From sequence record SRR22947727_660: a DNA stretch of 42,717 nucleotides; one strand, 5' to 3'. A program made the position numbers and the translations under genes. Under the pieces are notes generated by a model. The model was not told the DNA's origin. It saw nothing but the letters and a program-made list of their open reading frames with translations, and did not search any database. Position 1 is the stretch's first letter; every line of letters begins with the position of its first letter. Below are positions 2 through 42,717 of the stretch, piece after piece.

Positions 2-538
2 ATCTAATCTAGATTTTATTAAACCTATTTGTGTATTAATTGATTGTATTTTATGATCATCTGAATCCAATCTACTTTTTACAGAAGTTATTGTAGGAGA
101 AGCAACAAGGGTTGTTTCGAAACCTCCAACTGTAACTAAAGAATCAGAATCTGTAGCTGCTTCTTTGTTAACATTAACTAATATTTTTCTATTAGCTATC
201 CAAGCATCTCTTTGATTATTATATTGAAACGATGGAGAAGTTCCTCTTTCGAATAAACTGTCACTGTCTGTTACAGTAATTCCAACATTGTTATATTGTT
301 CTGAATCATAAGCATTTTTAGCTAGTACAATATTTTTATCTGCAATAGTTAATGTAGTAGAGTTTACAATTGACTGAGCACCATAAACTCTTAGATCACC
401 ATGTATTCTTACGTTATCAAAAGACACATATCCATCAGCCTCTGAGTCAGCTAATAAGTTATTATTGTTCTTATCAACTAAACCTGTGACTTGAGATCTT
501 CCTAATTGGTTTGTAATTCTTCTAGTATTTTTGGCCAT
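2..538 (-). CDS. tail fibre / virion structural protein with RLDSD coiled-coil repeats (partial, runs off window start; absent from the ORF track)
   Basis: Manual translation from ATG (cat at 536-538) gives MAKNTRRITNQLGRSQVTG...GDLRVYGAQSIVNSTTLTIADKNIVLA...VKSRLDSDDHKIQSINTQIGLIKSRLD, open to the window edge. The G.L.V.G....VNSTT..I.DKNI.L pattern is typical of phage fibre proteins. TATAAATA lies immediately upstream on the minus strand. Confidence 0.8.
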   Translation of the reverse strand, partial: MAKNTRRITNQLGRSQVTGLVDKNNNNLLADSEADGYVSFDNVRIHGDLRVYGAQSIVNSTTLTIADKNIVLAKNAYDSEQYNNVGITVTDSDSLFERGTSPSFQYNNQRDAWIANRKILVNVNKEAATDSDSLVTVGGFETTLVASPTITSVKSRLDSDDHKIQSINTQIGLIKSRLD

Positions 539-542
539 GTTT

Positions 543-550
543 TATTTATA
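543..550 (-). promoter_or_regulatory. T4-type late promoter (TATAAATA)
   Basis: tatttata on the + strand equals TATAAATA on the - strand, 4 nt upstream of the ATG of the minus-strand fibre gene. Confidence 0.65.
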
Positions 551-584
551 TGTAAAAAAATTTAAAAATATATATAATTAGCTG

Positions 585-615
585 TTGACTTTAGTATAAT
601 ATATAGGATTATAAT
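585..615 (+). promoter_or_regulatory. possible sigma70-like promoter for the hydrolase gene
   Basis: TTGACT at 585-590 and TATAAT at 610-615, with a non-optimal 19-nt spacer in very AT-rich DNA. An AAGGAG RBS precedes ATG 643. Confidence 0.3.
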
Positions 616-642
616 ATTATATTTAATTAAGGAGAAAAAGTA

Positions 643-1140
643 ATGAACGAATTTTTAGCAGCATTGTTTATATCAAAAGCTATAATATTTTCTACTACAC
701 CAGTTGAAGTAAAGACAGCTTCTCCTGAATTGTATTGTTTAGTACAGAACATTTATTTTGAAGCTGGAAATCAATCATACGCTGGAAAAGTAGCTGTAGC
801 AGAAGTAACTTTGAACAGAGTAAAAACAAGAAAATATCCATCCACCATTTGCGGTGTGGTGAAACAAGCTATAATGAGCAAGTGGTGGAAAGAAGAACAT
901 GGTAAAGATGTACCTGTTAAAAACAAATGTCAATTTTCTTGGTTCTGTGATGGCAAGAGCGATGAAATAAAATACGCTGGAACTTGGAAGAGTTCAATGA
1001 TTGCTGCACACGATGCGCTCAATTCAGAACGTAAATTTACAGAAGGTGCACTGTATTATCATGCTAATTACGTAAATCCTAAGTGGAATAAGTCAAAGGA
1101 ATACATTACTAGCATAGGAGATCATATTTTCTACAGATAA
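643..1140 (+). CDS. SleB-like cell wall hydrolase (Hydrolase_2 family)
   Basis: Family motifs CL..NIYFEA.NQ...GK.AVA.V.LNRV, CQFSW.CDGK, GALYYHA.YV.P.W and IG.HIFY. Hydrophobic N-terminus and AAGGAG RBS. Confidence 0.9.
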   Translation: MNEFLAALFISKAIIFSTTPVEVKTASPELYCLVQNIYFEAGNQSYAGKVAVAEVTLNRVKTRKYPSTICGVVKQAIMSKWWKEEHGKDVPVKNKCQFSWFCDGKSDEIKYAGTWKSSMIAAHDALNSERKFTEGALYYHANYVNPKWNKSKEYITSIGDHIFYR

Positions 1141-1144
1141 CTGT

Positions 1145-1152: not shown

Positions 1153-1156
1153 ATGT

Positions 1157-6300: not shown

Positions 6301-6653
6301 TTTTTTATGCAGTGAATGGAACAACCTTTTATAACATTGAAGCTTTTGAGCAAAAGTGGAATACTATTCATAGAAAAAGAGTAAACAAAGAAGGTTGGGA
6401 AGTACAAGGATATAGTTCATCGTATGTAAACGCTACTGGAGTTGATTACAGAAAAGTAAACAATTATTCAAATTTCAAACCATTATATTCAGAAATTAAA
6501 TCTTCAATTAATAAAGAATTTTGGAACACAACTGATACAATTGTTTGGCAAAACGCTTATGTTAACCCATTAAATAGTAAGCTAACTAATTTAAGAGATG
6601 TAGATTCTGATAGTAGAAATCCTAATCTATACAATAGTTTGAGAAAAGATTAA
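3384..6653 (+). CDS. gp7: baseplate wedge initiator gp7-like protein, DS[D/E]-rich
   Basis: N-terminal QIPQF....Y..F..FL..YYE and I.D.Y.SKGT..S.K.FFR.LY motifs, and C-terminal D..FY..YSY.L.S.....W...VK..LHPAG motif. Syntenic between gp6 and gp8. About 23 DS[D/E] tripeptides. Confidence 0.75.
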   Translation: MAKRVYPHISEQIPQFIRNNYEVFEKFLKVYYEYMEKQNDSDTDLDSTVYKKMTNPNDLIQGQQEYRDPDKTLEAFLEYFKRDVLPISATPVGTDDRFLINKIRDLYLSKGTPNSFKLFFRLLYAKEIDVVQPSEQILDASEGTYVSNNVLTFLSKDSDGVLNNVDFNNSFIEQDDSEIATVVFGSKIDKIGNNSVVTITTSASFNKQPDSEILIINKKDRSKYVTGTVLRQIKNLLIQDSEIGLYNVGDEIIVTQNQNKFTIPVRSTTSGSVSSVVVKNRGINYSVNDTIIFTSKGQGTGGSATITDVDSAGRIISIDNSNVRTGILRNGYLSNDFQNVNVPILQGGNYNQLPQVKIISGNGHGAEIVPFSNTIGRINDFNFFNKGFFDSENNINVSMPMNINIHGETDLNEGQTIRIQKFEADSDGFLFDSDTFRFSIKFSNRKFNSQDSELVRVRIPYSFNFNTFQWIDSEFTFSHTDSESLAHTLKDILDREIKTSSTYRFKVIDSDEKGNPDSETLRVFLQDPNLKGLDNFHFDLLNRYEDSDKYRSIAFKKIKQTPFLGLSENVGRFKNTRFIGKIVNVNKDKNIIKINQTLKIDSDDTYPFDSDLNNIENQRYKILRVVPIDKETNNATVKEQFKFNNIIANHQRGKATVTFEGSGQTSKQFLDEKGFLNSLSGGVIRDNFFYDVYSYVLKSDISIENWREYVKNTLHPAGMNLLSTLNINSDVSSSTKKTVNVENISESFKITFDRSLDHSVNAAENKGSINAATSMYASNAFNYYNATFENGTSITADNTSLNLQEAEEAEFGNAFWDYEPIGFIDPKSTQLKDSDNSEFISERGYIHSTYDIKPNDSEYSQDFYKYKNLKRYPDQLNLSIGKTQFKAGTNIYMMYDSEKQNDINFIRFDYSKDSDNSYINDSEEASIFKGIVYKKLRDKDSDFVKQELTKRNYEYLIEHQNDLNNATKMDDTFFYAVNGTTFYNIEAFEQKWNTIHRKRVNKEGWEVQGYSSSYVNATGVDYRKVNNYSNFKPLYSEIKSSINKEFWNTTDTIVWQNAYVNPLNSKLTNLRDVDSDSRNPNLYNSLRKD

Positions 6654-8119
6654 TGACTGCTAAAATAACAAACAACTTTAATTCTTTTATAGCTAAAGCT
6701 GTAAGAGACAACTTAAAAGATATTAATAACTTTGATGCTTATTATGCATTCGTAAGTTTTAATAATGATTCAGATATTCAAAGATATACAGATTCGGACG
6801 GTATAGATGAAGATGCTGAATTTACTGGTGGTATAAATCCAACTTTTAATTCTGATGACAAAAGTTATTACATGCAACATTCAATAACTGCTCACAAATT
6901 ACAAAAAGGAAATGTTACTAGAGTAATTCCAAGAATTAATTGGATTACTGGAACAAGATATAAAGTAAATGATTATGTTATGGTAACTTCAGTTATAAGA
7001 GGTATAACAAATTTAAATGTGTATAAAGTTTTACATTACCCTAACGCTTCTAGCGTAGCTGTTCCTTCAGGTGATCAGTCGACACCAATAACTACATCTG
7101 ACAAATACATATGGCAATACATGTATACAATTAATTCATCTGACAGCTTACGATTTATAACAGAAAATTATATTCCAGTTCCAGAGAGAATAGAAGATAA
7201 TGAAATTGAAAGTTTAAATGTAGGCACATCAAAATACAAACAATTTCAAGTACAAAGAGATTCTGCAGTTGGTTCTATTTACAGTGTTTCAATAAACGAC
7301 AGTGATTGGGAAGTGTGGGCGAGAAACAATTATGGTTCTTTTTCTAATATACCAACTTCAATTTCAGTAACTGCCCAAAATTCAACATCAAATATTCCTA
7401 CAAAAATATTTTCAGGTTCAATTGAAAGACACGATAGCGAATTTAACTTTAGTCTAATAAACAATGGTGAAGGTTATAGTGAAGGTACAATAATTAAAAT
7501 AAACACAAATACGCCTGATGGATTAGTAGCAAATGTTTCACCTGGTTTAGGACATGGAACAAATGCTCCATTAGAATTAAATTCAAAATACGTTATGGTT
7601 AACATTAGAAATGTTCCAGACGACAAAGTTATTAAATTTGCAAGAAACAACTTTAGAATGGTTTCTTTAATTAGAAATCCAATTGATAATTCAACAAACA
7701 AAATTGCAAAGAATGATTTTTACACAACATGTAAATCTTTTATTGGAAGTGATTCTGATGGAGGAAATACAACATTTAACATAGGAGATATTGTTTCAAC
7801 ATCAGATATTGCTGGAAACAATTATGATTCTACTGACGCTAAAGTTGGAAGAATAGTTGCAGTAGATATTTCAAAGAAAGAATATTTTTACGTGAATTTA
7901 GGTAAAGTAAAGGATAAAGATTCGTTTTTAGTAAACGACGAAGTTAAAATTGTTACTAGCTCAGGAAACGTGTCTGGTAATCCTTTAACAATATCTAAAA
8001 TAAACAACAGAGAAATATTATTCAATTCAGGAGATATTTTGCTTTCGGACATAAAAAGTTCTAAAATAAGAAGAGCAAAAGATCAAATTGAATCGTTTAA
8101 TTTTATCTTAACTTTATGA
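6653..8119 (+). CDS. gp8: baseplate wedge subunit gp8
   Basis: VIPR.NW..G..Y, NVYK.L, D.YIW.YMYTI, F....YIPVP, GHG.N...EL and FR.V.LI.NP motifs of T4-like gp8. Synteny supports the call. Confidence 0.85.
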   Translation: MTAKITNNFNSFIAKAVRDNLKDINNFDAYYAFVSFNNDSDIQRYTDSDGIDEDAEFTGGINPTFNSDDKSYYMQHSITAHKLQKGNVTRVIPRINWITGTRYKVNDYVMVTSVIRGITNLNVYKVLHYPNASSVAVPSGDQSTPITTSDKYIWQYMYTINSSDSLRFITENYIPVPERIEDNEIESLNVGTSKYKQFQVQRDSAVGSIYSVSINDSDWEVWARNNYGSFSNIPTSISVTAQNSTSNIPTKIFSGSIERHDSEFNFSLINNGEGYSEGTIIKINTNTPDGLVANVSPGLGHGTNAPLELNSKYVMVNIRNVPDDKVIKFARNNFRMVSLIRNPIDNSTNKIAKNDFYTTCKSFIGSDSDGGNTTFNIGDIVSTSDIAGNNYDSTDAKVGRIVAVDISKKEYFYVNLGKVKDKDSFLVNDEVKIVTSSGNVSGNPLTISKINNREILFNSGDILLSDIKSSKIRRAKDQIESFNFILTL

Positions 8120-8131: not shown

Positions 8132-11100
8132 ATGGCTAATATTGATTTAAACATTTCACCTTATTTTGATGACTTTGACGAAGACAAAGATTTTTTAAGA
8201 GTTTTATTCAGACCTGGTTTTCCAGTTCAAGCAAGAGAACTTACAACAGCTCAAACTATACTCCAGGAACAAATTAAAAGAACAGGTGACTTTCTTTTAA
8301 AGGATGGAGCTAGAGTTACAGGTGCAAAAATTGAATTCGATAAAAAACCAAAAAGATTATCTCTCACTGGATCTTCAAATACATCTTTTCCTGCTTCTGC
8401 AGCAAGATCTAGTTCTATTTTATCTAATATTCAAGATATAGAAAATTTAGTTATATCAAATTCAGATGGTACAGTAAAAGCAATTGTAATGACTAGTCCA
8501 ACTGGTATTAACAAAGTAACTTCAATAGGTAATCTGTATATAAAATATATTACTAGTAACGAGTTTGATTCAGCAGGAGGTTTTATATATGCCACACTTG
8601 CAGATAATCCACTGTTATCAGCTGAATTGTATAATACGTATTCGTCTATTTCTAGTTGCTCTCTTGCTCATATAGACGAAGGTGTATATTATGTCCAAGG
8701 ATTTTTTACTAGAGTAAAACAACAAACAGTAGTTGTAGACAATTCATCTAATAATCCAAATGTTAAATTGGGATTTACAGTTTCAGAAACATTAGTAACA
8801 CCAAATACAGATACTAGTTTATTTGATAATGCAAGGGGTTCTTCAAATGAAGGAGCTCCAGGAGCTCATAGATTACAACAAACATTAGCTTTTAGTATAA
8901 GATCTTTATCAGCAGATACAGATCCTAACTTTTTTGAAGTTATGAATATACAAAATGGTATTTCAGTTCAGCAAACATCCACAACAGATAATATAGGTGG
9001 AGGCATTTCTAAAGCTTTCAGCGATAGAATATACGAGACGTTAGGAAGCTATCAAGTTTCACCTACAAATTTAACTTATAATTATACAGATAGTGACTCA
9101 ACTTTTGCATACACTTTTGATAGAATTAAAGCATATGTAAATGGTGATAGATTTCAAAGTAAAGGTAAAACATCTATAGTTGCACCTAAGCCAGAGTCTA
9201 CACTTAAAGTTAACAGTGAGACGGTTGACATTACTGGTGTTCCTTACATTAACATTGATATAGAAACAAATAGTGCTCTTCCAGGTTTCGTGTCTGCCAC
9301 ATCAAACAATCCACATTTACATACAAATAGATTATTATTACAAGATTCAGATAATAAAACATATGGTTATGCTAGAGCTTATAGTTTAGTAAACTTATCA
9401 ACTAATGATACAAGACTTTATTTGTATGATGTTAAATTTTTTCAGAAACTAAAATTACAAGGCACACCTCACGTTTTAGGTATTGGTTATGATATAAAGA
9501 CTATAAACGACACTTCTGCATATTACACAGAGTTAGAAAATACTGGATCTTCTGATACTAATTGGGTAGGTGATTCAGATATTTTATTAATAGATCATAA
9601 TAAAAATTTTAGAGTTGGTCAGACTATATCTTCATCTGTTGATAAAAGTTTAAGTAAAACAATTGTTTCTGTTGAAAGTTATAGTTGGAACAACATTACT
9701 AACATAGCAGGTAAGTCTGGAACTTTTTATGCTAAAATAAAAAGCAATTCAAAAATACAAAATAACAACAGTCAACTTATAGGTTTAGTACCTGGAATTG
9801 TTAGAACGGCTAGAGATGACTCTAAAGTTTTTGATAATGACTTCGAAGTGTTGATGCCTAATCCACCAGTAATAGCTGGAACAGGAGGAAAGATTTCTAT
9901 AACTCCAAAAACTACTGATAGTTATATATCTACAGCTACAGCTAATGGAGATTATGTCAGAACAAGAATTGACGATGGAAATGAAGTAACTAAAAAATTA
10001 AAATATGCTTACGTAAAAATAAGAAATGGTGCAAGTAGATCTACTTCAATAAATTATGGATGGACTACTAATGATAGAGAAATGACCTTGATATATTCTG
10101 ATATACATAAAGTTCAAGGGTTATCACAAGGAACAGTAAATAACGAATTCTCACATTTTAATCAAATTAACATTAACATAGCTGGTGGTGGAATTATACC
10201 TCAGGGATCTTTAATTATTGGAGCTATTTCTAGAACTTATGCAATAGTAGCTTTATCTAACACTTCGTTAAACGAAACTGAGCTTACTAATACTAATGGT
10301 TATCATACTACAAGATCAGGTACAGGTTCAACTACTGTAATAGAAATTATTAAAAGAGACAACAGTAAATCTTTTATAACTAACGAAAATTTAATAATAG
10401 TAGTTCCTAATGATAAAGATACGTTTACAAATACAGTAACATTCGAATCTAACAGAATAAAAGTTGCAACTAATGTAACCGAAACATTTGGAAATAGAGT
10501 TGAACAGAATTATTTTGTTGACGATGGACAAAAAAATCACATTTACGAAACAGGCAAATTGATAAGGAAGAGGTTAATTCAATCACCATCTAAAGGTGAC
10601 TTAACTATTTTCTTTTCTTATTATGAAGATCAAGATGCAACAAACAAATTTTATTACAGCGCAGACTCTTATTTGAATGGTGGTTTTGGAAAATCTAATC
10701 CAGTCTTTAATAATAAAATAGTTCAAATTAAAGGAAATGAAGTTATAAATGGTATTAGCAGAAAAAATATAATTGATTTTAGAAAAAAACTTCAACCTAA
10801 TACAAACACTGGTTTAAACTCTTTTCATTTTAACCATAAAGTTTTTGAAAATAGATCTAGTATTATTCCAGGTATTGGTAACAGTTTTGATAGTAAGTCC
10901 AAATTTACATTTACATTTGAAGAATATCTAAGTAGATATGACGTGTTGTATATTAATTCAGGAGCTAATAAACAAATTTCAAGATTGTCTGGTTTACCTG
11001 CTAGAGATCCTCAAGTACCTAAATTTACTAATGCAATGGGAATGAAATTAGCAACTGTTAAAGTTCCGGGTGCATTTAAAGTTTTTAGTCAATTATCTAA

Positions 11101-12694
11101 AGTCATAGAAAATAACAGAAACTTTACAATGAAAGATATACAAGGTATTGAAAATAGATTAAAAAATCTTGAAAATATAGTTTCACTTTCAATTTTAGAA
11201 ACACAAGCATTAGCTGAAGATGTAAATGATAGAACTAAACTAGGATTTATAGTTGATGATTTTTCTACATCAACTGATAATGTTATACAAGATTATACTT
11301 TATCAACTGCTACTGCTTCGTTAAAAGATAAAACATTAAGACCAGTTTCAGTTTCAACCAGTGTAGATATGGAACTATTAGATAGTACTGATTTAGGTTT
11401 AAAAAGAAGTGGTATAGATCCTTTTTATTTCAAGAAAGGTTTTATAACTAAATCATATACTCAATTTCCTAATGTAGAAAATAATGATAACGAATATGTT
11501 TCACAATTGCAAGCTTCTTCGTCAATAAAAGTAAATCCATATTCAACTAGTACATATACAGGATACATAACTTTAGATCCTGCAAGAGATACTATAAAAA
11601 TAAAAGCTGGCAGACAAATTAGCAAGTACACTATTGATAGAGAAGGTATTGTTAATGATTCAGATGTAACTTTACAAGAATTTGAAAAACACGTTAAAGC
11701 TGTTCCAATGTCTGATAGATGGGCAGGAGATTGGGAAGACTTAGGAGCTGTATCCACAATGTCAGCTTCAAGAGGTAATTTTACTGTAACTTTAGATTCC
11801 CAACCACAGATAAAAAATACTTTTCAAAAACAATTTGTAACAAGAGACAAAGCTAACCAGTTTGACAGAGAAGATACACATATAGATACTAATGCATTTA
11901 TACCATCAAGAGAAGTTATATTTAATGCTGAAGGTTTAAAACCTAACACAACAATGATTGCAATGTTTGATCACAGAGTTGTAACTGATAAATGTATACA
12001 AGCAGATGATACGTCTGGAGCTTTAAGTTTCATAGGCAGCACAAGTGGTGTGTTGAAAACTGATGGATTTGGTTTAATAAGAGGTAAATTTACAATTCCA
12101 GCAAATACTTATAAGACAGGAAATCATATTTTTACTCTCAAAGACGAAACATCTATTTCAACAGCTCAAGCAAAATATACTGCTGGTTCTTCATATGATA
12201 TAGGCAATTTGTCTAAATTTAGAACAGATGGCATAGAAGATGTTATAGTTTTGACAGAAACAAGATTAAAAACTTTTAATAAAGTGTCAAAATATTTAGG
12301 AAGAGTTATTGCTACTGATACTAATGAAAATACTTACGAGGGTAACTCGACAAATAGAGGAGTGACTCAAACTTCAAATGTTATGGATGACATTCACGCA
12401 GCTAATAATATAGCAGATCCTTTTGAGCCGGCTTCAAATGGAACATTAGATTATTCAGATTTTTCTTCTCATGGAAATATACACAGTGGTATTGAAGGTC
12501 ACGTTCAAAATCTTCACACATCACACATTAATAGTATGTATTCTAACGATGCTGATGGCTATAATGGCGGCGGTAACAACGGAGGTAGTAACACTGGTGG
12601 TCCAAACTCAAATGATGCTAATTCACATGGAGGTGTAGATGGTCCAGGAGGTGCAGATAGTAGTGATGCTGGTATGGGAGGAGAAGACGTATGA
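8132..12694 (+). CDS. large virion structural protein, VrlC/DUF4815-like (N-terminal part)
   Basis: N-terminal N.SPYFDDF....F.RVLFRPG..VQARELT..Q..LQ.Q, APGAHR and TMKDI..IE.R...LE...SLS.LE...GF.VD.F motifs, typical of the large structural protein after gp8 in marine T4-like phages. Confidence 0.8.
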   Translation: MANIDLNISPYFDDFDEDKDFLRVLFRPGFPVQARELTTAQTILQEQIKRTGDFLLKDGARVTGAKIEFDKKPKRLSLTGSSNTSFPASAARSSSILSNIQDIENLVISNSDGTVKAIVMTSPTGINKVTSIGNLYIKYITSNEFDSAGGFIYATLADNPLLSAELYNTYSSISSCSLAHIDEGVYYVQGFFTRVKQQTVVVDNSSNNPNVKLGFTVSETLVTPNTDTSLFDNARGSSNEGAPGAHRLQQTLAFSIRSLSADTDPNFFEVMNIQNGISVQQTSTTDNIGGGISKAFSDRIYETLGSYQVSPTNLTYNYTDSDSTFAYTFDRIKAYVNGDRFQSKGKTSIVAPKPESTLKVNSETVDITGVPYINIDIETNSALPGFVSATSNNPHLHTNRLLLQDSDNKTYGYARAYSLVNLSTNDTRLYLYDVKFFQKLKLQGTPHVLGIGYDIKTINDTSAYYTELENTGSSDTNWVGDSDILLIDHNKNFRVGQTISSSVDKSLSKTIVSVESYSWNNITNIAGKSGTFYAKIKSNSKIQNNNSQLIGLVPGIVRTARDDSKVFDNDFEVLMPNPPVIAGTGGKISITPKTTDSYISTATANGDYVRTRIDDGNEVTKKLKYAYVKIRNGASRSTSINYGWTTNDREMTLIYSDIHKVQGLSQGTVNNEFSHFNQININIAGGGIIPQGSLIIGAISRTYAIVALSNTSLNETELTNTNGYHTTRSGTGSTTVIEIIKRDNSKSFITNENLIIVVPNDKDTFTNTVTFESNRIKVATNVTETFGNRVEQNYFVDDGQKNHIYETGKLIRKRLIQSPSKGDLTIFFSYYEDQDATNKFYYSADSYLNGGFGKSNPVFNNKIVQIKGNEVINGISRKNIIDFRKKLQPNTNTGLNSFHFNHKVFENRSSIIPGIGNSFDSKSKFTFTFEEYLSRYDVLYINSGANKQISRLSGLPARDPQVPKFTNAMGMKLATVKVPGAFKVFSQLSKVIENNRNFTMKDIQGIENRLKNLENIVSLSILETQALAEDVNDRTKLGFIVDDFSTSTDNVIQDYTLSTATASLKDKTLRPVSVSTSVDMELLDSTDLGLKRSGIDPFYFKKGFITKSYTQFPNVENNDNEYVSQLQASSSIKVNPYSTSTYTGYITLDPARDTIKIKAGRQISKYTIDREGIVNDSDVTLQEFEKHVKAVPMSDRWAGDWEDLGAVSTMSASRGNFTVTLDSQPQIKNTFQKQFVTRDKANQFDREDTHIDTNAFIPSREVIFNAEGLKPNTTMIAMFDHRVVTDKCIQADDTSGALSFIGSTSGVLKTDGFGLIRGKFTIPANTYKTGNHIFTLKDETSISTAQAKYTAGSSYDIGNLSKFRTDGIEDVIVLTETRLKTFNKVSKYLGRVIATDTNENTYEGNSTNRGVTQTSNVMDDIHAANNIADPFEPASNGTLDYSDFSSHGNIHSGIEGHVQNLHTSHINSMYSNDADGYNGGGNNGGSNTGGPNSNDANSHGGVDGPGGADSSDAGMGGEDV

Positions 12695-14538
12695 TAGGTA
12701 GTATAGCACAAACTTTTACTTTACCAGGTGTATTTGCACAATCGTTAGGTTATGATGCAGATGGCATTCCCTTTAATAAAACAACATCTAATGATGAAAA
12801 TTCTATAGCAGTTAGAGATGCGTGTTTTGTAACTTCTGTAGATATATTTTTTGACTATGTAGATTTGAATAGCAATCAAAATTATGTTAGAGTAGAATTA
12901 AGAGACACTAGACCTGATGGAACTCCAGGTAGTGTTGTAGTAGGTTACGCTTCTAAATTTTTAACAGACAGTGATGGTTCAGCTGTTGGCAGAGCTACTG
13001 CAACAACAGTATCAAATTTTAGATTCAATTCACCTGTTTACTTATTAGCTAGTAAAATTTATTCTTTAGTAGTTAAAACTAGATCACCTTTAACAAGCAT
13101 TTATGTATCTGAATTAGGTAAAACTGATATTACAGCTGGAAAAGGTGGTTTAATAAACAGACCTCCAGTTATAGGACAAGCAGGAGGAACACTTTATACG
13201 TCTGATAATGGTTTTACATACATACCTATTCCAACTAAAGATATGAAATTTAGATTGTACAAAGCTAAATTTGATACAACAACTAATGAAATAAATTTAA
13301 GATCTAAACTTTCAAAATTAGCTGTTAACATAGGTAAGTTAAACGATGGTATTCCTATAAGAACTTTCAATCACTCTCCTTATGTTTTGGTAAAACACCT
13401 TAACCACGGTATGTATGGAGCAAATCAAAAAGTTGTAATATCAGGTGTAGTAGGATCAAACGGTACTAGTTTGTTAGGAGGTATTCCTATTGATCAAATT
13501 AACACTCAAAAAGATGCAGCTTTAGACGGATTTGTAAAATCTCATGATGTACTTTATCCTTTTCAAAATGGATACTTTATAAAGGTTACACAAAACGCAT
13601 CTTCTAACGAAGATGGTGGTGGTTTAAATGTACTTGCAACTTCTAATTTACAATATAGTAATTTATATTCAAATCTTAATGCAGTGAATAATGAATTTAC
13701 AAGAATTGATACTAAAATAAAAAGTACTTCAGGTACTACTTTAGATAATGTAATTACTAATAATTTAAAAGTATTAGATACTACTCATCAAGATTATAGA
13801 TCTACAGGATCAAAAGATGATAGTTTTTCTCACATTGAAGCAGATAAAAATGTATATTTTGATAAACCTAAAAGTATACTTTCCTCTGTTAACTCTACAA
13901 CTAGTACTTTAGATATGAATATAATTATGAATACAGCTAGTGAAAATTTTTCTCCGGTTATACCAGTTGAATCTAACGAGTTTAACATAATTAATAGAGT
14001 CAAATTGTTAAGAAATAAAGTAGGTCAAAGTCCTGATGATTCTGATTTAGATAATAATTACTTATCGTTTCAAAATTCAAGAGCTAATGATAGTGATTTG
14101 TTAGGCGAAGGTGACTCAGACAATACTGACAAGCAAGAAAAAGTAGCTTCATATTATTCTTCATTATATGCTAGTAAAGTAGATCATTCTGATTATGTAA
14201 CTAAATTGGTTAGTTTAGAAACACCAGCAGATACTATAATTGTAAAATTTTCAGCTGATATGAATCCTTCTAATGAAATTGAAATATCCTTTAAAGCAAA
14301 GAGATTAGGAGATAATAAAAATATTAATGATCAAGATTTTGAAAACTTTAAACTTAATCAATTCATTAATGAAACTAATTTTGGACAATTTAATTCATCT
14401 GAAAATTTTAAAGAATACACAGCTGAACATAAAGTTGGTGAAGACTTTACAGATTTTATAGTAAGAATAAGAATGAAAACTAAAAATGAATCATATGTTC
14501 CTAGAATTAAAAATTTAAGGATCATTGCTGTTGCTTAA
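12691..14538 (+). CDS. virion structural protein, C-terminal part of the VrlC/DUF4815-like protein
   Basis: Starts with IAQTF..., then FVTSVDIFF, F.F.SPVYL, DMKF.LY.A.F, H.NHGM and Y.TK.V.L. It ends P.IKNLR.IA, as in the C-terminal half of this family. ATGA overlap with a GGAGGAG RBS at 12677-12683. Confidence 0.75.
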   Translation: MIGSIAQTFTLPGVFAQSLGYDADGIPFNKTTSNDENSIAVRDACFVTSVDIFFDYVDLNSNQNYVRVELRDTRPDGTPGSVVVGYASKFLTDSDGSAVGRATATTVSNFRFNSPVYLLASKIYSLVVKTRSPLTSIYVSELGKTDITAGKGGLINRPPVIGQAGGTLYTSDNGFTYIPIPTKDMKFRLYKAKFDTTTNEINLRSKLSKLAVNIGKLNDGIPIRTFNHSPYVLVKHLNHGMYGANQKVVISGVVGSNGTSLLGGIPIDQINTQKDAALDGFVKSHDVLYPFQNGYFIKVTQNASSNEDGGGLNVLATSNLQYSNLYSNLNAVNNEFTRIDTKIKSTSGTTLDNVITNNLKVLDTTHQDYRSTGSKDDSFSHIEADKNVYFDKPKSILSSVNSTTSTLDMNIIMNTASENFSPVIPVESNEFNIINRVKLLRNKVGQSPDDSDLDNNYLSFQNSRANDSDLLGEGDSDNTDKQEKVASYYSSLYASKVDHSDYVTKLVSLETPADTIIVKFSADMNPSNEIEISFKAKRLGDNKNINDQDFENFKLNQFINETNFGQFNSSENFKEYTAEHKVGEDFTDFIVRIRMKTKNESYVPRIKNLRIIAVA

Positions 14539-29473: not shown

Positions 29474-30506
29474 AAGCAAATATAATTTCAACGATATACC
29501 ATTTAAAGATATAGAAATGGTTGGTCAACATACTATGGTAATAAGAGATTTGTTTACTGTATCTTGGTTGTTAGGAAGATTTTGTAATTACAATTGTTCT
29601 TATTGTTGGCCTTATGCTAGATCAAGTAAGAAAGATCATAGAGATACAGATTTATGTTTAATGACTATAGACGAAATAAAAAGACAAGCGAGGGACAATG
29701 GGTTTAATTCATTTCATTTTTCACTTAGTGGCGGTGAACCTACTTTTCATCCAGGGTATTTGGAAATACTCGAGCATCTTGCTGATGACGCTAATAATTG
29801 CAATTATACTTCTATACATATGACAACTAACTTATCAAGGAAAGGACCTTGGTGGGATAAGTATTTAGATATAGCTAAGAAATTTAACAGAGCTTCTATA
29901 ACAGCTTCTTGTCATAGAGAGTCAATCAATACACAAGCCAAGTTAGAAGAGTTTAGAGATAAGTTAGTTTACTTACAAGACAATGGAACTAAAATTACTA
30001 TTAATCAAGTGATGTTAGTTGATACATTTTGGCAGTGTTTAGAAGACGCTAACTTCTTTGCAGAAAAAAATATTAACGTAACTCTTAAACCTCAATCAGA
30101 TCCAACAGCTTCTTTTGTTGTTGATGGTTATACCGACGAGATGTTGGACATATTACACAATGGTATGCCTCAAAAAGTTGAGGGTAAACAAATTTTTCAA
30201 GTTGAAATGAGAGACTCAAAAAATAAAATATGGTGGATGGATCAAGCTGAAAGATTTAATGCTTTTAATTTTAACAAATTTGAAGGATGGGAATGTTCTT
30301 CAGGTTATAGATCAATAATAATTAGAGAACCAGACGGTAGTGTTAAACGTAGTTATAGTTGTAGAGATAAACCTTTAGGTTATATTCATAAAGGTTTTAA
30401 ATTATTTGACAAGCCTAAAATATGTTCGACAAAAACATGTGTATCTTCTGCTGATAGTAAAATACCTAAACGTAAAATAGGTACAGGTCATAAATTATGG
30501 CCATAA
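29460..30506 (+). CDS. radical SAM protein
   Basis: CNYNCSYC, SGGEPT and MTTNLS motifs. C-terminal W.C..G...I...G...R..C...C....C cluster. The track start is 29442. Confidence 0.85.
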   Translation: MELNKSKYNFNDIPFKDIEMVGQHTMVIRDLFTVSWLLGRFCNYNCSYCWPYARSSKKDHRDTDLCLMTIDEIKRQARDNGFNSFHFSLSGGEPTFHPGYLEILEHLADDANNCNYTSIHMTTNLSRKGPWWDKYLDIAKKFNRASITASCHRESINTQAKLEEFRDKLVYLQDNGTKITINQVMLVDTFWQCLEDANFFAEKNINVTLKPQSDPTASFVVDGYTDEMLDILHNGMPQKVEGKQIFQVEMRDSKNKIWWMDQAERFNAFNFNKFEGWECSSGYRSIIIREPDGSVKRSYSCRDKPLGYIHKGFKLFDKPKICSTKTCVSSADSKIPKRKIGTGHKLWP

Positions 30507-31222
30507 TAAACTTTTTCACATTTAAATGGGGAGCTAAATATGGCCCAGAATACGTCAATAGACTTTATGGAAGTTTACGGAATAACTGTAGTCACAATTT
30601 TATACTTAATGTTATTACTGACAACGTTCACGATATTGATAGCAATATCAATATTATCGATTATACCAGCTTTGATCCTTTTTGTTATCCAAAAAATCAA
30701 ATCTTTACTCGAGAAAAACTCGTCTTATTCAACAAGTTCGTAGAAGGTAGAAATTGTTGGTTAGATTTAGATATATTAATACATGATAATATAGATGAAC
30801 TAATTGAACAAGAATTACCTAGGCCTAAATTTATATGGAACTACTGGAATGATTATAAAGAACGTTCAGAGAAATGGTACGGTAAAGGGGTGTCTTGTCA
30901 CGTTAATTCCTCAGTTGTAATGTGGGAAGGTGATAATGGTAGGTACTTATACGACTTACTTGTAGATAAAGAAAAAGAAGCTTTCTTTACATACAAATCT
31001 TTAGATAAGTTTTTATTCTATCAAGCTCACAGAAAAGGTTTACTTGATTATTGGGATGAAGGTATAGTAAGTAATTATAACAAAGAATATTTTAAAAGAA
31101 AAGGCAAAATAAGTATATTCAACACTTCACATATTTTGCATAATAAAGGTATTACTGAACAAGCATTTGAGTTAGATGAGGTACAAGGATGGGCAGAAGA
31201 GATCTGGAAAAGTTATTATTAG
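30497..31222 (+). CDS. GT-A fold glycosyltransferase-like protein
   Basis: KWG.KY.PEYVN.LY, .TD, K..LF, DxD (WLDLDILI) and NSSV..W motifs typical of phage GT-like nucleotide-diphospho-sugar transferases. Confidence 0.72.
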   Translation: MAIINFFTFKWGAKYGPEYVNRLYGSLRNNCSHNFILNVITDNVHDIDSNINIIDYTSFDPFCYPKNQIFTREKLVLFNKFVEGRNCWLDLDILIHDNIDELIEQELPRPKFIWNYWNDYKERSEKWYGKGVSCHVNSSVVMWEGDNGRYLYDLLVDKEKEAFFTYKSLDKFLFYQAHRKGLLDYWDEGIVSNYNKEYFKRKGKISIFNTSHILHNKGITEQAFELDEVQGWAEEIWKSYY

Positions 31223-31605: not shown

Positions 31606-32239
31606 ATATGCAAATATGCTCAAGTGGTTTTATAATAACCACTTAGATAAAATAGATAGATTTGTTGAATCAGTATCTCATAATCAACAAAAATCAAAAG
31701 AACAATTATTTCTTGGTTTAAAAGAAAAAAATATTGTTGTTCCTAGTAATGAAGATGGTGGCATAACTATTGAAATAGTAGGTGGGTGGTTTGGATGGCC
31801 ATTAATAGGTATGTTACAAAAATATTTTGGTAACTCAATATTAAAAATTAATTTTTTTGAAATTGATCCTTTTGCTGTAAAAGTTCTTCATAGATATATA
31901 AAAGAATTTGATCCTTATTTTACTATTAATATATTTGAACAGGATTGGTTTACTTATAAAGAAAATAGAAGAGCTCATATACTTATCAATACGTCATGTG
32001 AACACATGAAAGACTTTTCAGAAATGAGAGAATATTTTATTAGTCCTGAAAGAACATTATTAATGTTAACTTCAAATGATAAGATTAATGAACCTGATCA
32101 TATTAATTGTAAAAATTCATCAAGTATGTTAGCTATGGATAATAATGTTAGAATGCTACATGGCGATTGGTGTAGATTTAATGTTGGCACGCCTGAAAAA
32201 TATATTAGGTATTTTGTTATAGGCAAGTGGAATGGTTGA
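31595..32239 (+). CDS. class I SAM-dependent methyltransferase-like protein
   Basis: IEIVGGWFG (motif I-like), FFEIDP (acidic motif II), LINTSCEHM and H.NC. Confidence 0.6.
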   Translation: MQIEYANMLKWFYNNHLDKIDRFVESVSHNQQKSKEQLFLGLKEKNIVVPSNEDGGITIEIVGGWFGWPLIGMLQKYFGNSILKINFFEIDPFAVKVLHRYIKEFDPYFTINIFEQDWFTYKENRRAHILINTSCEHMKDFSEMREYFISPERTLLMLTSNDKINEPDHINCKNSSSMLAMDNNVRMLHGDWCRFNVGTPEKYIRYFVIGKWNG

Positions 32240-32786
32240 TATATTATTGGTCAATACAGGAGACAAGTATCCTCAAATTTATACTGATAATATAATTTAT
32301 ATGTTAGATAAAACTGGTACAAAGTATGATAATGTTCATATAATTTCTGAAGAACAGTATGATGGTGTATGGAACAAACTTCAATTGTTCAGAGACTTTA
32401 AGAAAGGTCCTTATCTATATTTTGATTTAGATGTATGTCTAACAAAAAATGTCGAATACTTACAAAGAAAACAATTTACGTTATTGAAAGCTTGGTGGAG
32501 AGAAAAGTATCACACACCATTAAATTCCTCAGTTATGTCGTGGGAAGGAGATTATTCTTTTTATTATAATATTTTTAATACAAATCCAGATTACTATATG
32601 ATGAAATACAAAGGTATTGATCAATACATATACGAATTAGATATGAGTTACACAACATATGAGCCGGTGTGTACTTCTTATAATTGGCAAGGGTTTAACG
32701 ACAATTGGGGTGTTACTATTTTTAATCAAGCATATGATAAGATGAGGGAGCAAGGACCATGGTCAAAGTATATGCTGTTCGAATAG
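32232..32786 (+). CDS. GT-A fold glycosyltransferase-like protein
   Basis: G.KY...Y, WNKLQLF, DxD (YFDLDV), NSSVM.W and G.DQYI motifs. Confidence 0.72.
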   Translation: MVDILLVNTGDKYPQIYTDNIIYMLDKTGTKYDNVHIISEEQYDGVWNKLQLFRDFKKGPYLYFDLDVCLTKNVEYLQRKQFTLLKAWWREKYHTPLNSSVMSWEGDYSFYYNIFNTNPDYYMMKYKGIDQYIYELDMSYTTYEPVCTSYNWQGFNDNWGVTIFNQAYDKMREQGPWSKYMLFE

Positions 32787-33319
32787 GTAACAAATATGGA
32801 ATTGAATACGAAGAATATTTAAAACAAAAAATTCCTGGTATAACATTTATTAACAAATCTGTAAATCCATTTATTTTACAATGGAACAAATTAAGATTTA
32901 TGGATTTAGATGTAGACGAACCTATATGTGTAATAGATGTTGATGTTGGTTTGTTTAATAACTATATGGAATTATTTAACTATCCAATTGATAAAGGAGA
33001 GTTTTTAAGTATTCCTAGTTGGTGGAAAGATACACAAAAAGAACAATACAAAATTAATGGAGGTTTCTATAAATACTACCCTAAAGAATGTAGATACATT
33101 GTCGACAGATTCAGAGAAAAACCTGAATATTATACAACTAAATATATTAAAAATCAGACTACAGTTGGACCAGTTAACGGGGAACAGTACTTTGTCGAAG
33201 ACACAGCTAGAGAAAATCTCGAGGTCAGAACAGTCCCAGAATGGTGGGTACAGCGAGCGTTTAAAGGCAAGTTTTTTCAAGACGGTGAAGTAAAATTAGT
33301 ACACTATAGTTGGCAATAA
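32759..33319 (+). CDS. GT-A fold glycosyltransferase-like protein
   Basis: G.KYG.EY, WNKL.FM, DxD (VIDVDV), NGGFYK, GEQ.FV and a terminal VH motif. Confidence 0.68.
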   Translation: MVKVYAVRIGNKYGIEYEEYLKQKIPGITFINKSVNPFILQWNKLRFMDLDVDEPICVIDVDVGLFNNYMELFNYPIDKGEFLSIPSWWKDTQKEQYKINGGFYKYYPKECRYIVDRFREKPEYYTTKYIKNQTTVGPVNGEQYFVEDTARENLEVRTVPEWWVQRAFKGKFFQDGEVKLVHYSWQ

Positions 33320-39466: not shown

Positions 39467-39892
39467 ATGGCGCGGCAGCTCAAGTATAATCTTAATAATC
39501 GTGTATTGACTATTGAGAACATGTTAGTAGATAAACTTGATTTTCAGAGTGATTCTGATATTAGTGTTTATACGATGGCAACAGGAGCTACAGCAACGGC
39601 AACTACTTCTGCTAGAAAAATTGTAGAGTTTGCAAAAACAACGTATGGCTCTGCAAAATTTATTATCCAAGCTACGGATAAGATAACAGATCAAAAACTT
39701 GTAACAGAAGTTTTATTATCTGTTGATAGCGATTCCGTAGACTTAACAGAATATGGTACTTTGGTATCATCTAACACCAGGTTTGTTGATTTTAGTTCAA
39801 TAATTAATGGTGAAATCTGTGAGCTTAGATCACAGACAACAAGTAGCAATCAAACCGAATTTAAGGTTAGTGCTACTTTAATAAGAGTATAG
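39467..39892 (+). CDS. virion structural / fibre-associated protein
   Basis: SAKF.IQ......TEVLL.......TEYG domain, paralogous to the C-terminal domain of 39929..41356. Confidence 0.6.
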   Translation: MARQLKYNLNNRVLTIENMLVDKLDFQSDSDISVYTMATGATATATTSARKIVEFAKTTYGSAKFIIQATDKITDQKLVTEVLLSVDSDSVDLTEYGTLVSSNTRFVDFSSIINGEICELRSQTTSSNQTEFKVSATLIRV

Positions 39893-39928: not shown

Positions 39929-41356
39929 ATGGCAAATAGAGATTTTCGAATCACCCAAGGACTTTTAGTCGGTGATTCAGATTTACATTTTAGTCTCGTT
40001 GGTAACACTTCATTAAAGTTAAAAAATAATGCAACTATTTCTATAGGTGACGCAGCTGTCGTAAAAGCAGGTGACAATGTTGATACCTTGGTTAACAATG
40101 CTAATTATTTAACTCCAAGTTCATTAACAGTTCTTAGGTCGGACATTGATTCAGATAGTGCAGCTATTCAAGCTGCTAAGACAGATTTAGCTGCGTTTAA
40201 ATCTGCTACTATTGGCAAACTGGATTCAGATTCAACTAAGATTCAAAGTTTAGGAACTCAAGTTGAAGTTATCCATACGAGATTAGATTCTGATCACGAT
40301 TTAATGAAATCAAAAATATCAAGTGGTTTATTAAATTTAGCTGACTCAGATCTTTTAACGTTTCAATTAGATCAAAAAGTAGCTGGATTAATAGCTAGGT
40401 TAGATTCTGATTCAATAGTTCAACAAACTATTAAGACTCAAGTTTTTCCAAGGTTAGATTCAGACGAAGCTAAACTACAGACAATCAAATCTGAATTAAA
40501 TGCTGAAATTACAGCTACCAATACAGATATAACTGCTATCAAAGGTAGATTAGATTCAGATAGTTCTAAGATTGAATCTTTAGGTATAGCGATCGCAGCT
40601 GAGACAACTGCAAGAGAAGCAGCTGTAACAGGTATTAGATCTGATTTAGATTCTGATTCTGCTGCAATTCAAGTATTGTCAGGATTAGTAAGTGGTAATA
40701 GTGCTTCACTCAGAGGAGATTTAGATTCAGATAGCGCAGCTATTCAAGCTGTTAAAACTGATCTAGCATCTTTTAAATCTTTAGTCAATGCAAGATTAGA
40801 TTCAGACGATGGAGCTATTCAAGCTGCTGCAAGTGCAGGAGCAGCTGCTGCTTCTGGTGCTCAAGCTAGAGCGGATGCTGCGCATGCAAGATTAGATTCT
40901 GATGCTGAAAGATTTACAAGGTTACAAACTATTGTAGATGGTATTAGATCTGATAATGATTCTGATGTATCGCGCATTTCTACTTTCAACGAGGGAATAT
41001 CACTTGGTGTAAATTCTGCTAATACTAATGGAATGGTTGTTATTGAACCACATACATTAACAACAGCAGCAACCGACCAAGTTGATATATACACTCATAC
41101 AGCGAGTGCGCTAAAAGGCTTAAAGCTAATAGTAACTGCTGCAAATACTGTTTCAGGTGAAAGACACATTACTGAACTCTTAGTAACACACGATGGAACT
41201 AACGTCGCGTTTGTAGAGTATGGTACAGTTTTTACTGGTGCAGCTGCATTAGCTACTTACGATATTGATATTAATACTGGAAATATTAGATTAAGGACTA
41301 CTCCTGCTAGTGCTAACTCTACTACGTTTACTGTATTAGAATCATATACTGTATAA
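39929..41356 (+). CDS. coiled-coil fibre protein with LDSD repeats
   Basis: MA..DF.I..GL.VG N-terminus, an Ala/Leu-rich coiled coil and a C-terminal E.LV.HDGT...EYG domain. 13 DSD in total. AAGGAG RBS. Confidence 0.75.
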   Translation: MANRDFRITQGLLVGDSDLHFSLVGNTSLKLKNNATISIGDAAVVKAGDNVDTLVNNANYLTPSSLTVLRSDIDSDSAAIQAAKTDLAAFKSATIGKLDSDSTKIQSLGTQVEVIHTRLDSDHDLMKSKISSGLLNLADSDLLTFQLDQKVAGLIARLDSDSIVQQTIKTQVFPRLDSDEAKLQTIKSELNAEITATNTDITAIKGRLDSDSSKIESLGIAIAAETTAREAAVTGIRSDLDSDSAAIQVLSGLVSGNSASLRGDLDSDSAAIQAVKTDLASFKSLVNARLDSDDGAIQAAASAGAAAASGAQARADAAHARLDSDAERFTRLQTIVDGIRSDNDSDVSRISTFNEGISLGVNSANTNGMVVIEPHTLTTAATDQVDIYTHTASALKGLKLIVTAANTVSGERHITELLVTHDGTNVAFVEYGTVFTGAAALATYDIDINTGNIRLRTTPASANSTTFTVLESYTV

Positions 41357-41370
41357 AATAACCGACCTTA

Positions 41371-41394
41371 AGGGGTAGCGCTAGCGCTACCCCT
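41371..41394 (+). terminator. perfect 24-bp GC-rich palindrome (hairpin; terminator or processing site)
   Basis: aggggtagcgct|agcgctacccct, intergenic, 14 nt after the stop. No clear U-tract follows. Confidence 0.5.
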
Positions 41395-41427
41395 CTATAT
41401 TATGACTTTGGGGAAAGTGAACCGAAG

Positions 41428-42075
41428 ATGGCTAGTAAGAATTTTTTAATTAAAAAAGGTCTTACGGTTGGTGATAGCGACTTACATGTAAGCAATAATC
41501 GTGCAAGTGTCAAAAACCTAACCGTAGGTAATGTTGAGTTCCCAGCTGACATAGGAACCCAAGACCAAATTCTTCGTGTTGACGGAGGAGTTGTTAGCTT
41601 TGGTAATCTAACTTCCGATCTTGTCATAGGTAACGCAGGCTTTGACTCAGATCAAATAAAAGCAATTTTAACAGAGAATCATGCAAAAGTTGATTCTGAT
41701 GCAATTGTTAATCTTGTAAATGAAAATGTTAGTCAAGGTAATATTGTTGATGCTAATGGATCTTTAGGTTATGATTCAGATCAAATAGTTTCAATAATAA
41801 ATGAAAATGTTGTTGCAGCTATTTCACCTTCTATATCAACAACAATTGAAAATTATAAATTTATATGTACATCTGGCCAAACTTCATTTTCAGGAAATGA
41901 TTCAAATGGAGCTTCACTTTCATATACTGTAAATTCAATACAAGTATTCTTAAATGGAATCAAATTAGATTCTACAGACTTCACAGCTACAAATGGTACT
42001 TCTGTTATATTGACAGAACCAACACAAGAAAATGCGGAACTGTTAGTAGATGCTTTCAAGATAATATTTTCTTAA
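41428..42075 (+). CDS. virion structural / fibre-associated protein
   Basis: N-terminus MASKNFLIKKGLTVGDSDLH is paralogous to that of 39929. C-terminal T.GQT.F...Y....V.LNG..L...DF.ATNGTS module is common in phage fibres. Confidence 0.65.
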   Translation: MASKNFLIKKGLTVGDSDLHVSNNRASVKNLTVGNVEFPADIGTQDQILRVDGGVVSFGNLTSDLVIGNAGFDSDQIKAILTENHAKVDSDAIVNLVNENVSQGNIVDANGSLGYDSDQIVSIINENVVAAISPSISTTIENYKFICTSGQTSFSGNDSNGASLSYTVNSIQVFLNGIKLDSTDFTATNGTSVILTEPTQENAELLVDAFKIIFS

Positions 42076-42161
42076 AAAATATATTTTTTTTATTGGTTAA
42101 ACGTATTAACACAGATACGTTTTATTAAATAAATGGTACAAAAAATTAAGAGGAATTAATA

Positions 42162-42717
42162 ATGAGTAATGGAAGAAAGATCGCAGACCTAGTTGTAGGT
42201 ACAAACGTAAAGGTTACACAAATTGATTCTGATTTAGACAATACAATAAGTTTATTAAAAACAAGATTAGATTCTGATGATGCTAAATTACAATCGTTAG
42301 ATACAGCAATTAATGCTGGTATTGTAAATCTTGTTGATTCTGATTTAATTATAAATCAATTACAATCAAAAATTAATTCTGCTATATCAAATGTTGATTC
42401 AGATTCTACAGCTTTACAAGCTGCTAATACACAAATAAGTTTAATAAAATCTAGATTAGATTCTGATCAAGGTAGAGTACAAGCTCTTAGTACATCCTTA
42501 GCATCAGAAATATTATCAACAAATACAGACATAAGTGCAATCAAAGGAAGATTAGATTCTGACGATGGTAGACTTCAAGCTCTAGATTCTAGTATTACTG
42601 TGTTGAAATCTAGATTAGATTCAGATGAAACAACAATACAATCAGCTAAAACTCTTATAGGTCAAGCTGTATCAAGTCAAGGAATGGCAGATTCTGATTT
42701 AAAAGTAGTTGCTGATT
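42162..42717 (+). CDS. coiled-coil fibre protein with RLDSD repeats (partial, runs off window end; absent from the ORF track)
   Basis: Manual translation MSNGRKIADLVVGTNVKVTQIDSDLDNTISLLKTRLDSDDAKLQ...IKGRLDSDDGRLQ..., open to the window end. GAGGA RBS and 8 DSD in ~185 aa. Confidence 0.82.
   Translation, partial: MSNGRKIADLVVGTNVKVTQIDSDLDNTISLLKTRLDSDDAKLQSLDTAINAGIVNLVDSDLIINQLQSKINSAISNVDSDSTALQAANTQISLIKSRLDSDQGRVQALSTSLASEILSTNTDISAIKGRLDSDDGRLQALDSSITVLKSRLDSDETTIQSAKTLIGQAVSSQGMADSDLKVVAD

Follow-up and report, generated by a model that had tools for sequence, protein, structure and literature searches.

The tripeptide Asp-Ser-Asp/Glu (DS[DE]) is a recurrent and conserved feature of tail, neck, and fibre proteins in a clade of uncultured marine T4-like phages. 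It was analysed in a 42.7-kb stretch of DNA from sequence record SRR22947727_660 (42,717 nucleotides; this whole stretch is called the window hereafter), where 92 copies (74 DSD and 18 DSE) are found in 13 of the 40 open reading frames (ORFs, named here by their first position or gene product) and none in the other 27. Direct observations concern the enrichment and specificity of the motif, selection on the protein, conservation, restriction to a clade, and partition among virion parts. From these we infer exposure of the sites, a reader acting in trans, and a chemistry. Tentatively, DS[DE] may be a short linear recognition motif, most plausibly for Ser O-glycosylation by phage-encoded sugar transferases, as the sequences suggest.

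Enrichment, specificity, and conservation of DS[DE]

Amino acid composition predicts approximately 6.5 DS[DE] in the 13 carriers, and the 92 observed are about 14 times this chance level. An initial annotation of this DNA had counted about 90 copies by eye, and its counts for each ORF, which are those given in Table 1, are all exact. It had also named a comparison with composition-shuffled controls as a check, and the enrichment stands in such a comparison. In 300 composition-preserving shuffles of each protein encoded by the 18 tail-module ORFs (7,904 amino acids, aa), DSD is found 74 times vs. 4.77 expected (z = 30) and DSE 18 times vs. 2.35 expected (z = 11). These two are the most enriched among all tripeptides, and the next ones, LDS and RLD, are derived from a fibre repeat. 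DSD alone is enriched 15-22 fold.

Residue specificity is near-absolute. Among DxD tripeptides of the window, x is Ser in 74 and any other residue at most 7 times (e.g., DTD 3, DND 3, and DGD 1). Among xSD tripeptides, x is Asp in 74 and any other residue at most 6 times, with no ESD; ESE is found once. DSA is found 7 times in the 18 tail-module ORFs. No flanking consensus was found around DS[DE] outside of the repeat fibres, and no Cys-framed consensus. The closest two copies in the window are 5 residues apart and there is no DSDSD run, whereas eight such runs exist in G005, a 152-kb contig of the same clade (85% complete).

The carriers are rich in Asp and Ser and the genome is AT-rich, which could point to an artefact of chance, composition, or DNA sequence. 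The probability of such an artefact is negligible. The z values against composition-preserving shuffles are 30-50, and DSD is found 74 times vs. 5 for DDS and 7 for SDD. Of the corresponding DNA pattern (GAY-Ser codon-GAN), frame 0 of the carriers has 92 copies, and all other frames, strands, and regions of the window together have only 3. Its Ser codons are mixed, and AGY makes up 24% of them within the motif vs. 29% outside. Because the pattern is confined to frame 0 and Ser codon choice resembles the background, selection acts on the peptide, and a DNA-level motif (e.g., a methylation or binding site at GANTC) is excluded. In many cases the carriers are not homologous to one another, and the motif arose in non-homologous proteins. 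Both protein-level selection and independent origins had been proposed in the initial annotation, and both are borne out.

DS[DE] sites are under purifying selection. The nine tail and baseplate carriers from ORF 2 to ORF 18742 were aligned with orthologues from IMG/VR contigs (59-99% identity). While background tripeptides are kept in 63% of cases and other Asp, Ser, and Glu residues in 80%, 223 of 226 motif sites are kept. The most distant set of orthologues (L022, 59-82% identity) keeps 27 of 28 sites. Conservation is complete in ORF 2 (5/5 sites in each of three orthologues), gp8 (5/5 in four), ORF 8132 (4/4 in three), ORF 12691 (4/4, L022 with 59% identity included), and ORF 18742 (9/9 in three, one of them at 62% identity). 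The gp7-position protein keeps 22/22, 21/23, 23/23, and 23/23 sites in orthologues of 78-95% identity, and ORF 17312 keeps 7/7, 7/7, and 6/7. Non-carrier ORFs still have zero DS[DE] in all of the IMG/VR orthologues aligned. Among gp14 homologues in a large protein collection, DS[DE] is found at the same places down to 43% identity, and D24 and S25 are retained by at least 90% of the 26 compared (43-76% identity). In homologues of 28-33% identity the site-bearing segments are missing.

Between the window and G005 (32-64% identity), 22 of 47 sites share an alignment column (10 of 23 in the gp7-position protein, at 32% identity), but G005 has 77 sites in the same proteins. Gain and loss of sites have therefore also taken place. 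In place of the sites lost are Gly/Asn-rich tripeptides made of loop residues (DGG, DGK, EGN, SNG, and GSG). A gain is found in ORF 14694-15431 (245 aa), which lies between the giant protein and gp14; it has no motif, and its 280-aa orthologue in G005 has five.

Distribution among clades and virion parts

The motif marks one whole clade of uncultured marine T4-like phages. Enrichment is found in each of the 14 IMG/VR loci with a gp14 of 55% or higher identity to that of the window (6.9-18.5 fold; 626 vs. 50.9 expected when pooled). In 66 loci of other T4-like clades (gp14 of at most 36% identity) the count is 156 vs. 151.0 expected, and lineage-specificity, another check proposed beforehand, is thus found. 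Of these small loci, ten have a 3-4 fold excess, which is due in part to gp15-type proteins with three sites. The structural proteins of RB14 have 1 vs. 4.9 expected (18 proteins) and those of S-RIM8 have 3 vs. 4.9 (14 proteins). G005 has 181 motifs in 18 ORFs (10,007 aa): DSD 141 vs. 6.5 expected (z = 50) and DSE 40 vs. 3.3, with the same specificity (DTD 3 and ESD 1). The gp14 and candidate-transferase proteins of the clade are recorded on contigs of up to approximately 175 kb from many samples. No close cultured relative was found in the phage collection, where the best gp14 match has 27% identity and the best terminase match 54% (cyanophages).

Outside of the clade, gp15-sized ORFs (263-265 aa) of loci L134, L173, L174, and L175 have three DS[DE] each, and there are four in the gp15 homologue (263 aa, 86441-87229) of G008, a contig of another T4-like clade. 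If the gp15-sized ORFs are indeed gp15, its sites may predate the clade-wide spread of the motif.

The motif was initially described as virion-wide. This is too broad: head genes are missing from the window, and in relatives the proteins of capsid, scaffold, tube, portal, and hub, as well as gp6 and gp25, are non-carriers. In G001 (69.5 kb, gp14 76% identical), which extends past the window, the carriers are fibres (16, 9, 4, 15, and 19 copies), the sheath (5), and a gp13-type adaptor (2). The non-carriers are the tube (0), portal (1), protease (0), scaffold (0 vs. 1.0 expected), and major capsid protein (0). The major capsid protein of another clade contig, G006, has one DS[DE]. Upstream of the region equivalent to the window, relatives have none in a phrog_350 tail protein and one in a gp5-type hub/lysozyme. 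Rather than the whole virion, DS[DE] thus labels those parts of tail, neck, and fibres that face outward.

Sites of the sheath align to residues ~105-306 of RB14 gp18, which we take to be its outer domains, and none lies in the C-terminal core. Sites of gp15 lie beyond the Pfam core and those of gp14 in segments specific to the clade. The surface exposure suggested in the initial annotation thus agrees with alignments, which place sites in loops, insertions, and outer domains. The AlphaFold2 (AF2) model of gp14 does not add to this, as it is poor (predicted local distance difference test, pLDDT, 55); in it, two sites flank a helix-loop-helix junction. Two G005 proteins without family matches that are encoded well away from the tail module (36231-36878, 216 aa; 41968-42930, 321 aa) have five DS[DE] each. 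They may be unrecognised virion parts, e.g., decoration or whisker proteins.

No DS[DE] is found in ORFs 643, 1157, 1576, 14694, and 20101 or in the block of 22 ORFs that spans 21059-39418 (6,175 aa). The reported absence from "non-structural" ORFs is correct, but since approximately 2.9 copies are expected in the 22 ORFs (P ~0.055), zero is by itself only weakly informative there. It had also been overlooked that this motif-free block is an island of radical S-adenosylmethionine (SAM), sugar-transferase-like, and oxygenase-like genes. In G005, ORFs with fewer than two motifs have 7 DS[DE] vs. 17.6±3.9 in shuffles censored in the same way (as few in 2 of 500), and the ratio of DS[DE] in non-carriers, 0.32, is the lowest among comparable tripeptide groups. 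This is a hint that DS[DE] is avoided in other proteins.

The window (approximately 29% GC) carries a T4-type tail and neck module. Its members are an endolysin-like ORF (643), gp25- and gp6-type wedge subunits, the gp7-position protein, gp8, a split DUF4815/phrog_358 giant protein, gp14, gp15, a protein with a gp9/gp10-type N-terminus, and several fibre-like proteins. Next come, in this order, an 18-kb island (21059-37166), both terminase subunits (small and large), and further fibres. Family matches were used to check the labels of the gp25- and gp6-type proteins, gp8, gp14, gp15, the gp9/gp10-type N-terminus, and both terminase subunits; ORF 3384 matches PHROG baseplate wedge and virion structural families. 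The two ORFs of the giant protein (8132-12694 and 12691-14538) overlap by 4 bases. Close relatives are likewise split (1516 + 615 aa), and the G005 counterpart is a single ORF of 2090 aa.

An RLDSD repeat is common to ORFs 2, 39929, and 42162. Units of 18 or 21 residues (xLxxRLDSDxxxIQxLxT) are found in the repeat fibres of the window (39929-41356 and 42162-42716) and of G001 (locus L090, 12527-15629), where motif spacing has maxima at 18 residues (12 pairs) and 21 residues (13 pairs). Pfam gives only weak coiled-coil hints for these fibres.

Table 1. Carriers of DS[DE] and candidate sugar transferases in the window
Feature	Coordinates	Strand	Motifs or basis
Partial fibre-like protein, 179 aa in window	2..538	-	5 DS[DE] vs. 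0.19 expected
gp7-position baseplate wedge protein, 1089 aa	3384..6653	+	23 DS[DE] vs. 1.15 expected
gp8 baseplate wedge	6653..8119	+	PF09215, phrog_438; 5 DS[DE] vs. 0.48 expected
DUF4815/phrog_358 giant structural protein, N-terminal ORF	8132..12694	+	4 DSD vs. 1.21 expected; weak carrier
phrog_358 C-terminal ORF	12691..14538	+	4 DSD vs. 0.55 expected
gp14 neck protein	15431..16462	+	PF11649, phrog_460; 5 DSD, all in clade-specific insertions/extensions
gp15 tail sheath stabiliser	16463..17308	+	3 DS[DE] at residues 246, 254, and 266; Pfam core 5-209
gp9/gp10-type N-terminus protein (baseplate-fibre connector)	17312..18742	+	7 DS[DE] vs. 0.36 expected
Fibre-like protein, no family match	18742..20055	+	9 DS[DE] vs. 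0.50 expected
Small fibre-connector-like protein	39467..39892	+	phrog_967 (C-terminal part); 2 DSD
Repeat fibre, RLDSDxxxIQ unit every 18-25 aa	39929..41356	+	13 DSD
Fibre-like protein	41428..42075	+	4 DSD; N-terminus shared with ORF 39929
Partial repeat fibre	42162..42716	+	8 DSD
Candidate GT-A/GT8-like sugar transferase, paralogue of ORF 32232	30497..31222	+	Atlas naming, sub-threshold PF01501
Candidate, paralogue of ORF 30497	32232..32786	+	24% identity over 139 aa, E = 2e-7
Candidate GT-A-like protein, VIDxD motif	32759..33319	+	Atlas naming, alignment

Candidate readers of the motif and alternative readings

If DS[DE] is a glycosylation signal, it would be presented by loops at the surface, insertions, and outer domains of the sheath, gp13/gp14, gp15, gp7/gp8/gp10-type proteins, and all fibres. 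A phage-encoded enzyme in the cytoplasm of the infected cell would recognise it and modify the central Ser. Soluble sugar transferases using phage-made nucleotide sugars would carry out the O-glycosylation, and the outcome would be a tail and fibres decorated with glycans. The stringency over three residues without flanks suggests the pocket of an enzyme, because a helix cap or a turn would also accept Thr, Asn, or Gly in the centre and Glu in the first position. Together with convergent origin, fixed sites with turnover, loop positions, and a single assembly line, this makes a motif that is read a better fit than an element of the fold. The staphylococcal transferase SdgB can read bare DSD, which favours modification of Ser.

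The main rival is a motif that needs no enzyme, that is, a cation-binding (Ca2+, Mg2+, or Fe3+) or purely structural turn or cap motif on tail surfaces in seawater. Two carboxylates and a hydroxyl could serve as ligands, and three copies would meet on the three-fold axes of fibres. We regard this as a serious but minority possibility. It agrees with sites located where relatives have Gly/Asn-rich turn residues, with the position of the motif every 18-21 residues before a helix-like segment in repeat fibres, and, as far as the poor model of gp14 can be read, with the two sites next to its helix-loop-helix junction. DS[DE] pairs 8 residues apart (6 vs. 1.4 expected in the window) could form a binding loop; however, this spacing is missing in G005 (3 vs. 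3.35), and a composite DS[DE]-x5-DS[DE] loop was rejected. Metal sites and caps normally accept Thr, Asn, or Asp in the centre and Glu in the first position, while DTD, DND, and ESD are at background here, and there is no DxDxDG or EF-hand-like flank. Cation binding also leaves unexplained the hint of avoidance in other proteins and the motif-free capsid, which is equally exposed.

DS[DE] may instead be a docking site for a non-enzymatic partner such as a tail chaperone, a decoration protein, or fibres retracted along the sheath and neck. The motif is confined to the assembly line of tail, neck, and fibres and absent from that of the head, its sites are strictly conserved, and fibres, sheath, and neck are all carriers, as expected if fibres stow along the tail in the way we assume for T4. 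Docking is nevertheless improbable. With 92-190 copies per protein set, DSDSD runs, and rapid gain and loss, a density-type signal is a better fit, and no candidate partner was found.

Candidates for the proposed sugar transferases exist in the island (Table 1). The nearest Atlas clusters of ORF 30497 are named "nucleotide-diphospho-sugar transferase", and its family has invariant D90-L91-D92 and S211-H212; two of 28 members match PF01501 below the cut-off. ORF 32759 is 51% identical to its homologue in G005 and 53% to that in G008; five contigs of other clades gave no match to its protein. GT-A/GT8-like ORFs adjoin the tail genes not only of the window but also of G001, G005, and six more loci of the clade.

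A second cluster of five genes, apparently restricted to the clade, is common to G005 (105-6299) and G001 (62.1-66.9 kb). Its gene C has weak Epimerase_2/DUF6716 matches (GT-B type) and gene E a weak GT8 match. Gene C has 24 relatives among 5.8 billion clusters, and its six IMG/VR loci are all of the G005 or G001 type. No match to gene B or gene C was found in G008, in three other non-clade contigs, or in the incomplete clade contig G006, which was meant as a positive control; therefore their absence elsewhere is weak evidence. In G005 two sugar genes lie within the cluster, one for a GDP-mannose 4,6-dehydratase (E = 1e-136) and one for a DegT aminotransferase (E = 8e-73); a ketoacyl synthase is close by. 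The dehydratase and the DegT/EryC1 aminotransferase would make up a perosamine-type route. This nucleotide-sugar cassette (105-9278, locus L177), which is located among transferase-like genes, also has a short-chain dehydrogenase. PF03407 and PF05159 have no matches in the clade contigs.

Several points weigh against Ser O-glycosylation by such enzymes. Modification of Ser is deduced from sequence data, exposure is judged from alignments, the gp14 model is poor, and the AF2 model of ORF 32759 (pLDDT 41) is too poor to use. Transferase assignments come from language-model naming and sub-threshold Pfam matches. For the three families of candidate transferases, sequence and profile searches of PDB gave nothing beyond matches that were non-significant or spurious (IsdB NEAT, E = 1e-3; KpsC, E = 0.17). 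GT-A-like genes are also found (48-53% identity) in G008, which is not enriched, and their products could act on host surface sugars instead. GT-B enzymes of the SdgB type (PF00534) were found in none of five clade contigs, all incomplete, while the control matched 14 of 14 genomes. The clade genomes used are incomplete contigs in general (15-85% by CheckV). Avoidance of DS[DE] is not replicated in G001 and L093 (6 vs. 9.5; 60 of 500 shuffles), and the control G008 has 12 vs. 16.5. Known virion glycosylation, in addition, targets capsids, and the capsid protein is motif-free here.

A sequon with other chemistry, either Ser phosphorylation by an acidophilic kinase or Asp beta-hydroxylation by a 2-oxoglutarate oxygenase, is about as improbable as docking. 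For phosphorylation, ORF 26852-27367 (171 aa) has a loop, HRDLTLSN...IIDPE, that by eye resembles that of small Bud32/RIO-type kinases (HRDLxxxN...D). The sole family match of this ORF is a PHROG of unknown function. Its homologues exist in only three loci (L008, L009, and L025) and are missing from L010, G001, and G005, and Hanks kinases (PF00069) were not found in five clade contigs. There is neither acidic enrichment at Ser+3 (the CK2 rule) nor an S-x-E (Fam20C) pattern. For hydroxylation, HxD...H patterns are seen by eye in ORFs 33334, 34415, and 36435, and G005 encodes an Asp/Asn beta-hydroxylase-type protein (PF05118, 34.3 bits, above the Pfam cut-off). However, the oxygenase-like ORFs of the window have no Pfam match, the neighbours of the PF05118 gene are a desaturase and a dehydrogenase, and lipid A hydroxylases belong to PF05118 as well.

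Between the tail genes and terminase, the island has seven radical-SAM ORFs (21537-36438). Four are N-terminal-twitch paralogues above the NF033640 cut-off, two are related but shorter, and one is a B12-binding PhpK-like protein. A 4HBT thioesterase, small DxD-motif proteins, and ORFs with HxD...H patterns are also found in the island, and PHROGs give no function for nine of the ten block ORFs. PMC5332604 mentions a T4-like genome from the ocean that has 12 radical-SAM genes. The radical-SAM/SPASM block adjoins tail genes and such enzymes often modify peptides; it could therefore be supposed to modify DS[DE], like maturases of ribosomally synthesised and post-translationally modified peptides. 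This is very improbable, as the phylogenetic profile contradicts it. G005 is strongly enriched and yet has no such block, only one radical-SAM gene (22-24% identical) approximately 70 kb away. G008 carries the block at 37-75% identity, yet its DS[DE] count is 29 vs. 24.2 expected. With the motif existing without the block and the block without the motif, the block is not responsible. Since gp14 and terminase of G008 are only 30% and 43% identical, the sequences suggest that the block moves horizontally between T4-like clades.

The top tripeptide of G008 (loci L187-L193) is DSA, 36 vs. 11.6 expected (z = 8). It is present in gp14 and concentrated in fibres (e.g., 12 vs. 1.0 expected in a fibre of 1097 aa at 79826-83116 of the contig). 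DSA may be a sister motif of DS[DE]. A broader and rather unlikely possibility is that each clade has its own tail code, a short Ser sequon on outward tail, neck, and fibre proteins that is read by its own soluble transferases. DS[DE] would be the code here and DSA that of the G008-type clade. An unusual sugar, e.g., a phage-made 4-amino-6-deoxyhexose, would be placed on the tail and not the head, and sequon and enzyme would co-evolve and switch between clades.

If Ser is modified, the phages would have a predictable three-residue sequon over the whole outer tail of an abundant uncultured ocean clade. Tail-surface chemistry would become readable from sequence, DS[DE] peptides would be a precise target for metaproteomics, and the purpose of large sugar/oxygenase/transferase islands in marine T4-like phages could be explained. 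If the motif binds cations instead, it would represent an unusually stereotyped build of a seawater-adapted tail surface. Under either reading, the motif takes 166 of the 514 Asp residues (32%) of its carriers and must therefore be central to how these tails work.

Comparison with known systems

Searches of the literature found no description of DS[DE] in phage tails, and the initial annotation had likewise known of none in T4-like phages. Among calcium-binding loops, DxDxDG and EF-hand loops likewise have acidic residues at i and i+2 in surface loops, but here the flanks have no conserved Gly or further ligands and the centre is fixed as Ser.

The O-glycosylation sequon of Bacteroidetes, D-(S/T)-(A/I/L/V/M/T), also has Asp followed by a hydroxyl residue. 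It is used in the periplasm, accepts Thr, and has a hydrophobic third residue. In the window the third residue is acidic and Thr is excluded (DTD 3 and DSA 7), while DSA in the fibres of G008 matches the letters of the Bacteroidetes sequon.

Mycobacteriophages, chloroviruses, and mimivirus (in its fibrils) have virus-encoded transferases that decorate virion proteins in the cytoplasm, and giant viruses encode pathways for 6-deoxy and 4-amino sugars. The GDP-mannose 4,6-dehydratase (Gmd) and DegT aminotransferase of G005 beside transferase-like genes are similar in this respect. We know of no DS[DE] sequon in the glycosylation of these viruses. The proteins glycosylated in those viruses are of the capsid, tail tube, or fibrils; in the present clade the major capsid protein has no motif (G001) or one (G006) and the tube none.

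A precedent is provided by SdgB and SdgA, which glycosylate the Ser-Asp adhesins of staphylococci, and the analogy drawn in the initial annotation is apt. According to PMC8561734, SdgB alone O-GlcNAcylates a minimal DSD peptide. Staphylococcal adhesins have long tandem SD repeats in one disordered stalk, while the phage motifs are mostly isolated tripeptides in folded, non-homologous proteins. DSE is used here besides DSD, and SdgB belongs to the GT-B fold (GT4), the type without a match in the five incomplete clade contigs. In both cases, however, the acceptor, or here the proposed acceptor, is a Ser between two Asp, and a soluble cytoplasmic enzyme decorates, or in the phages would decorate, fibre-like proteins of the surface.

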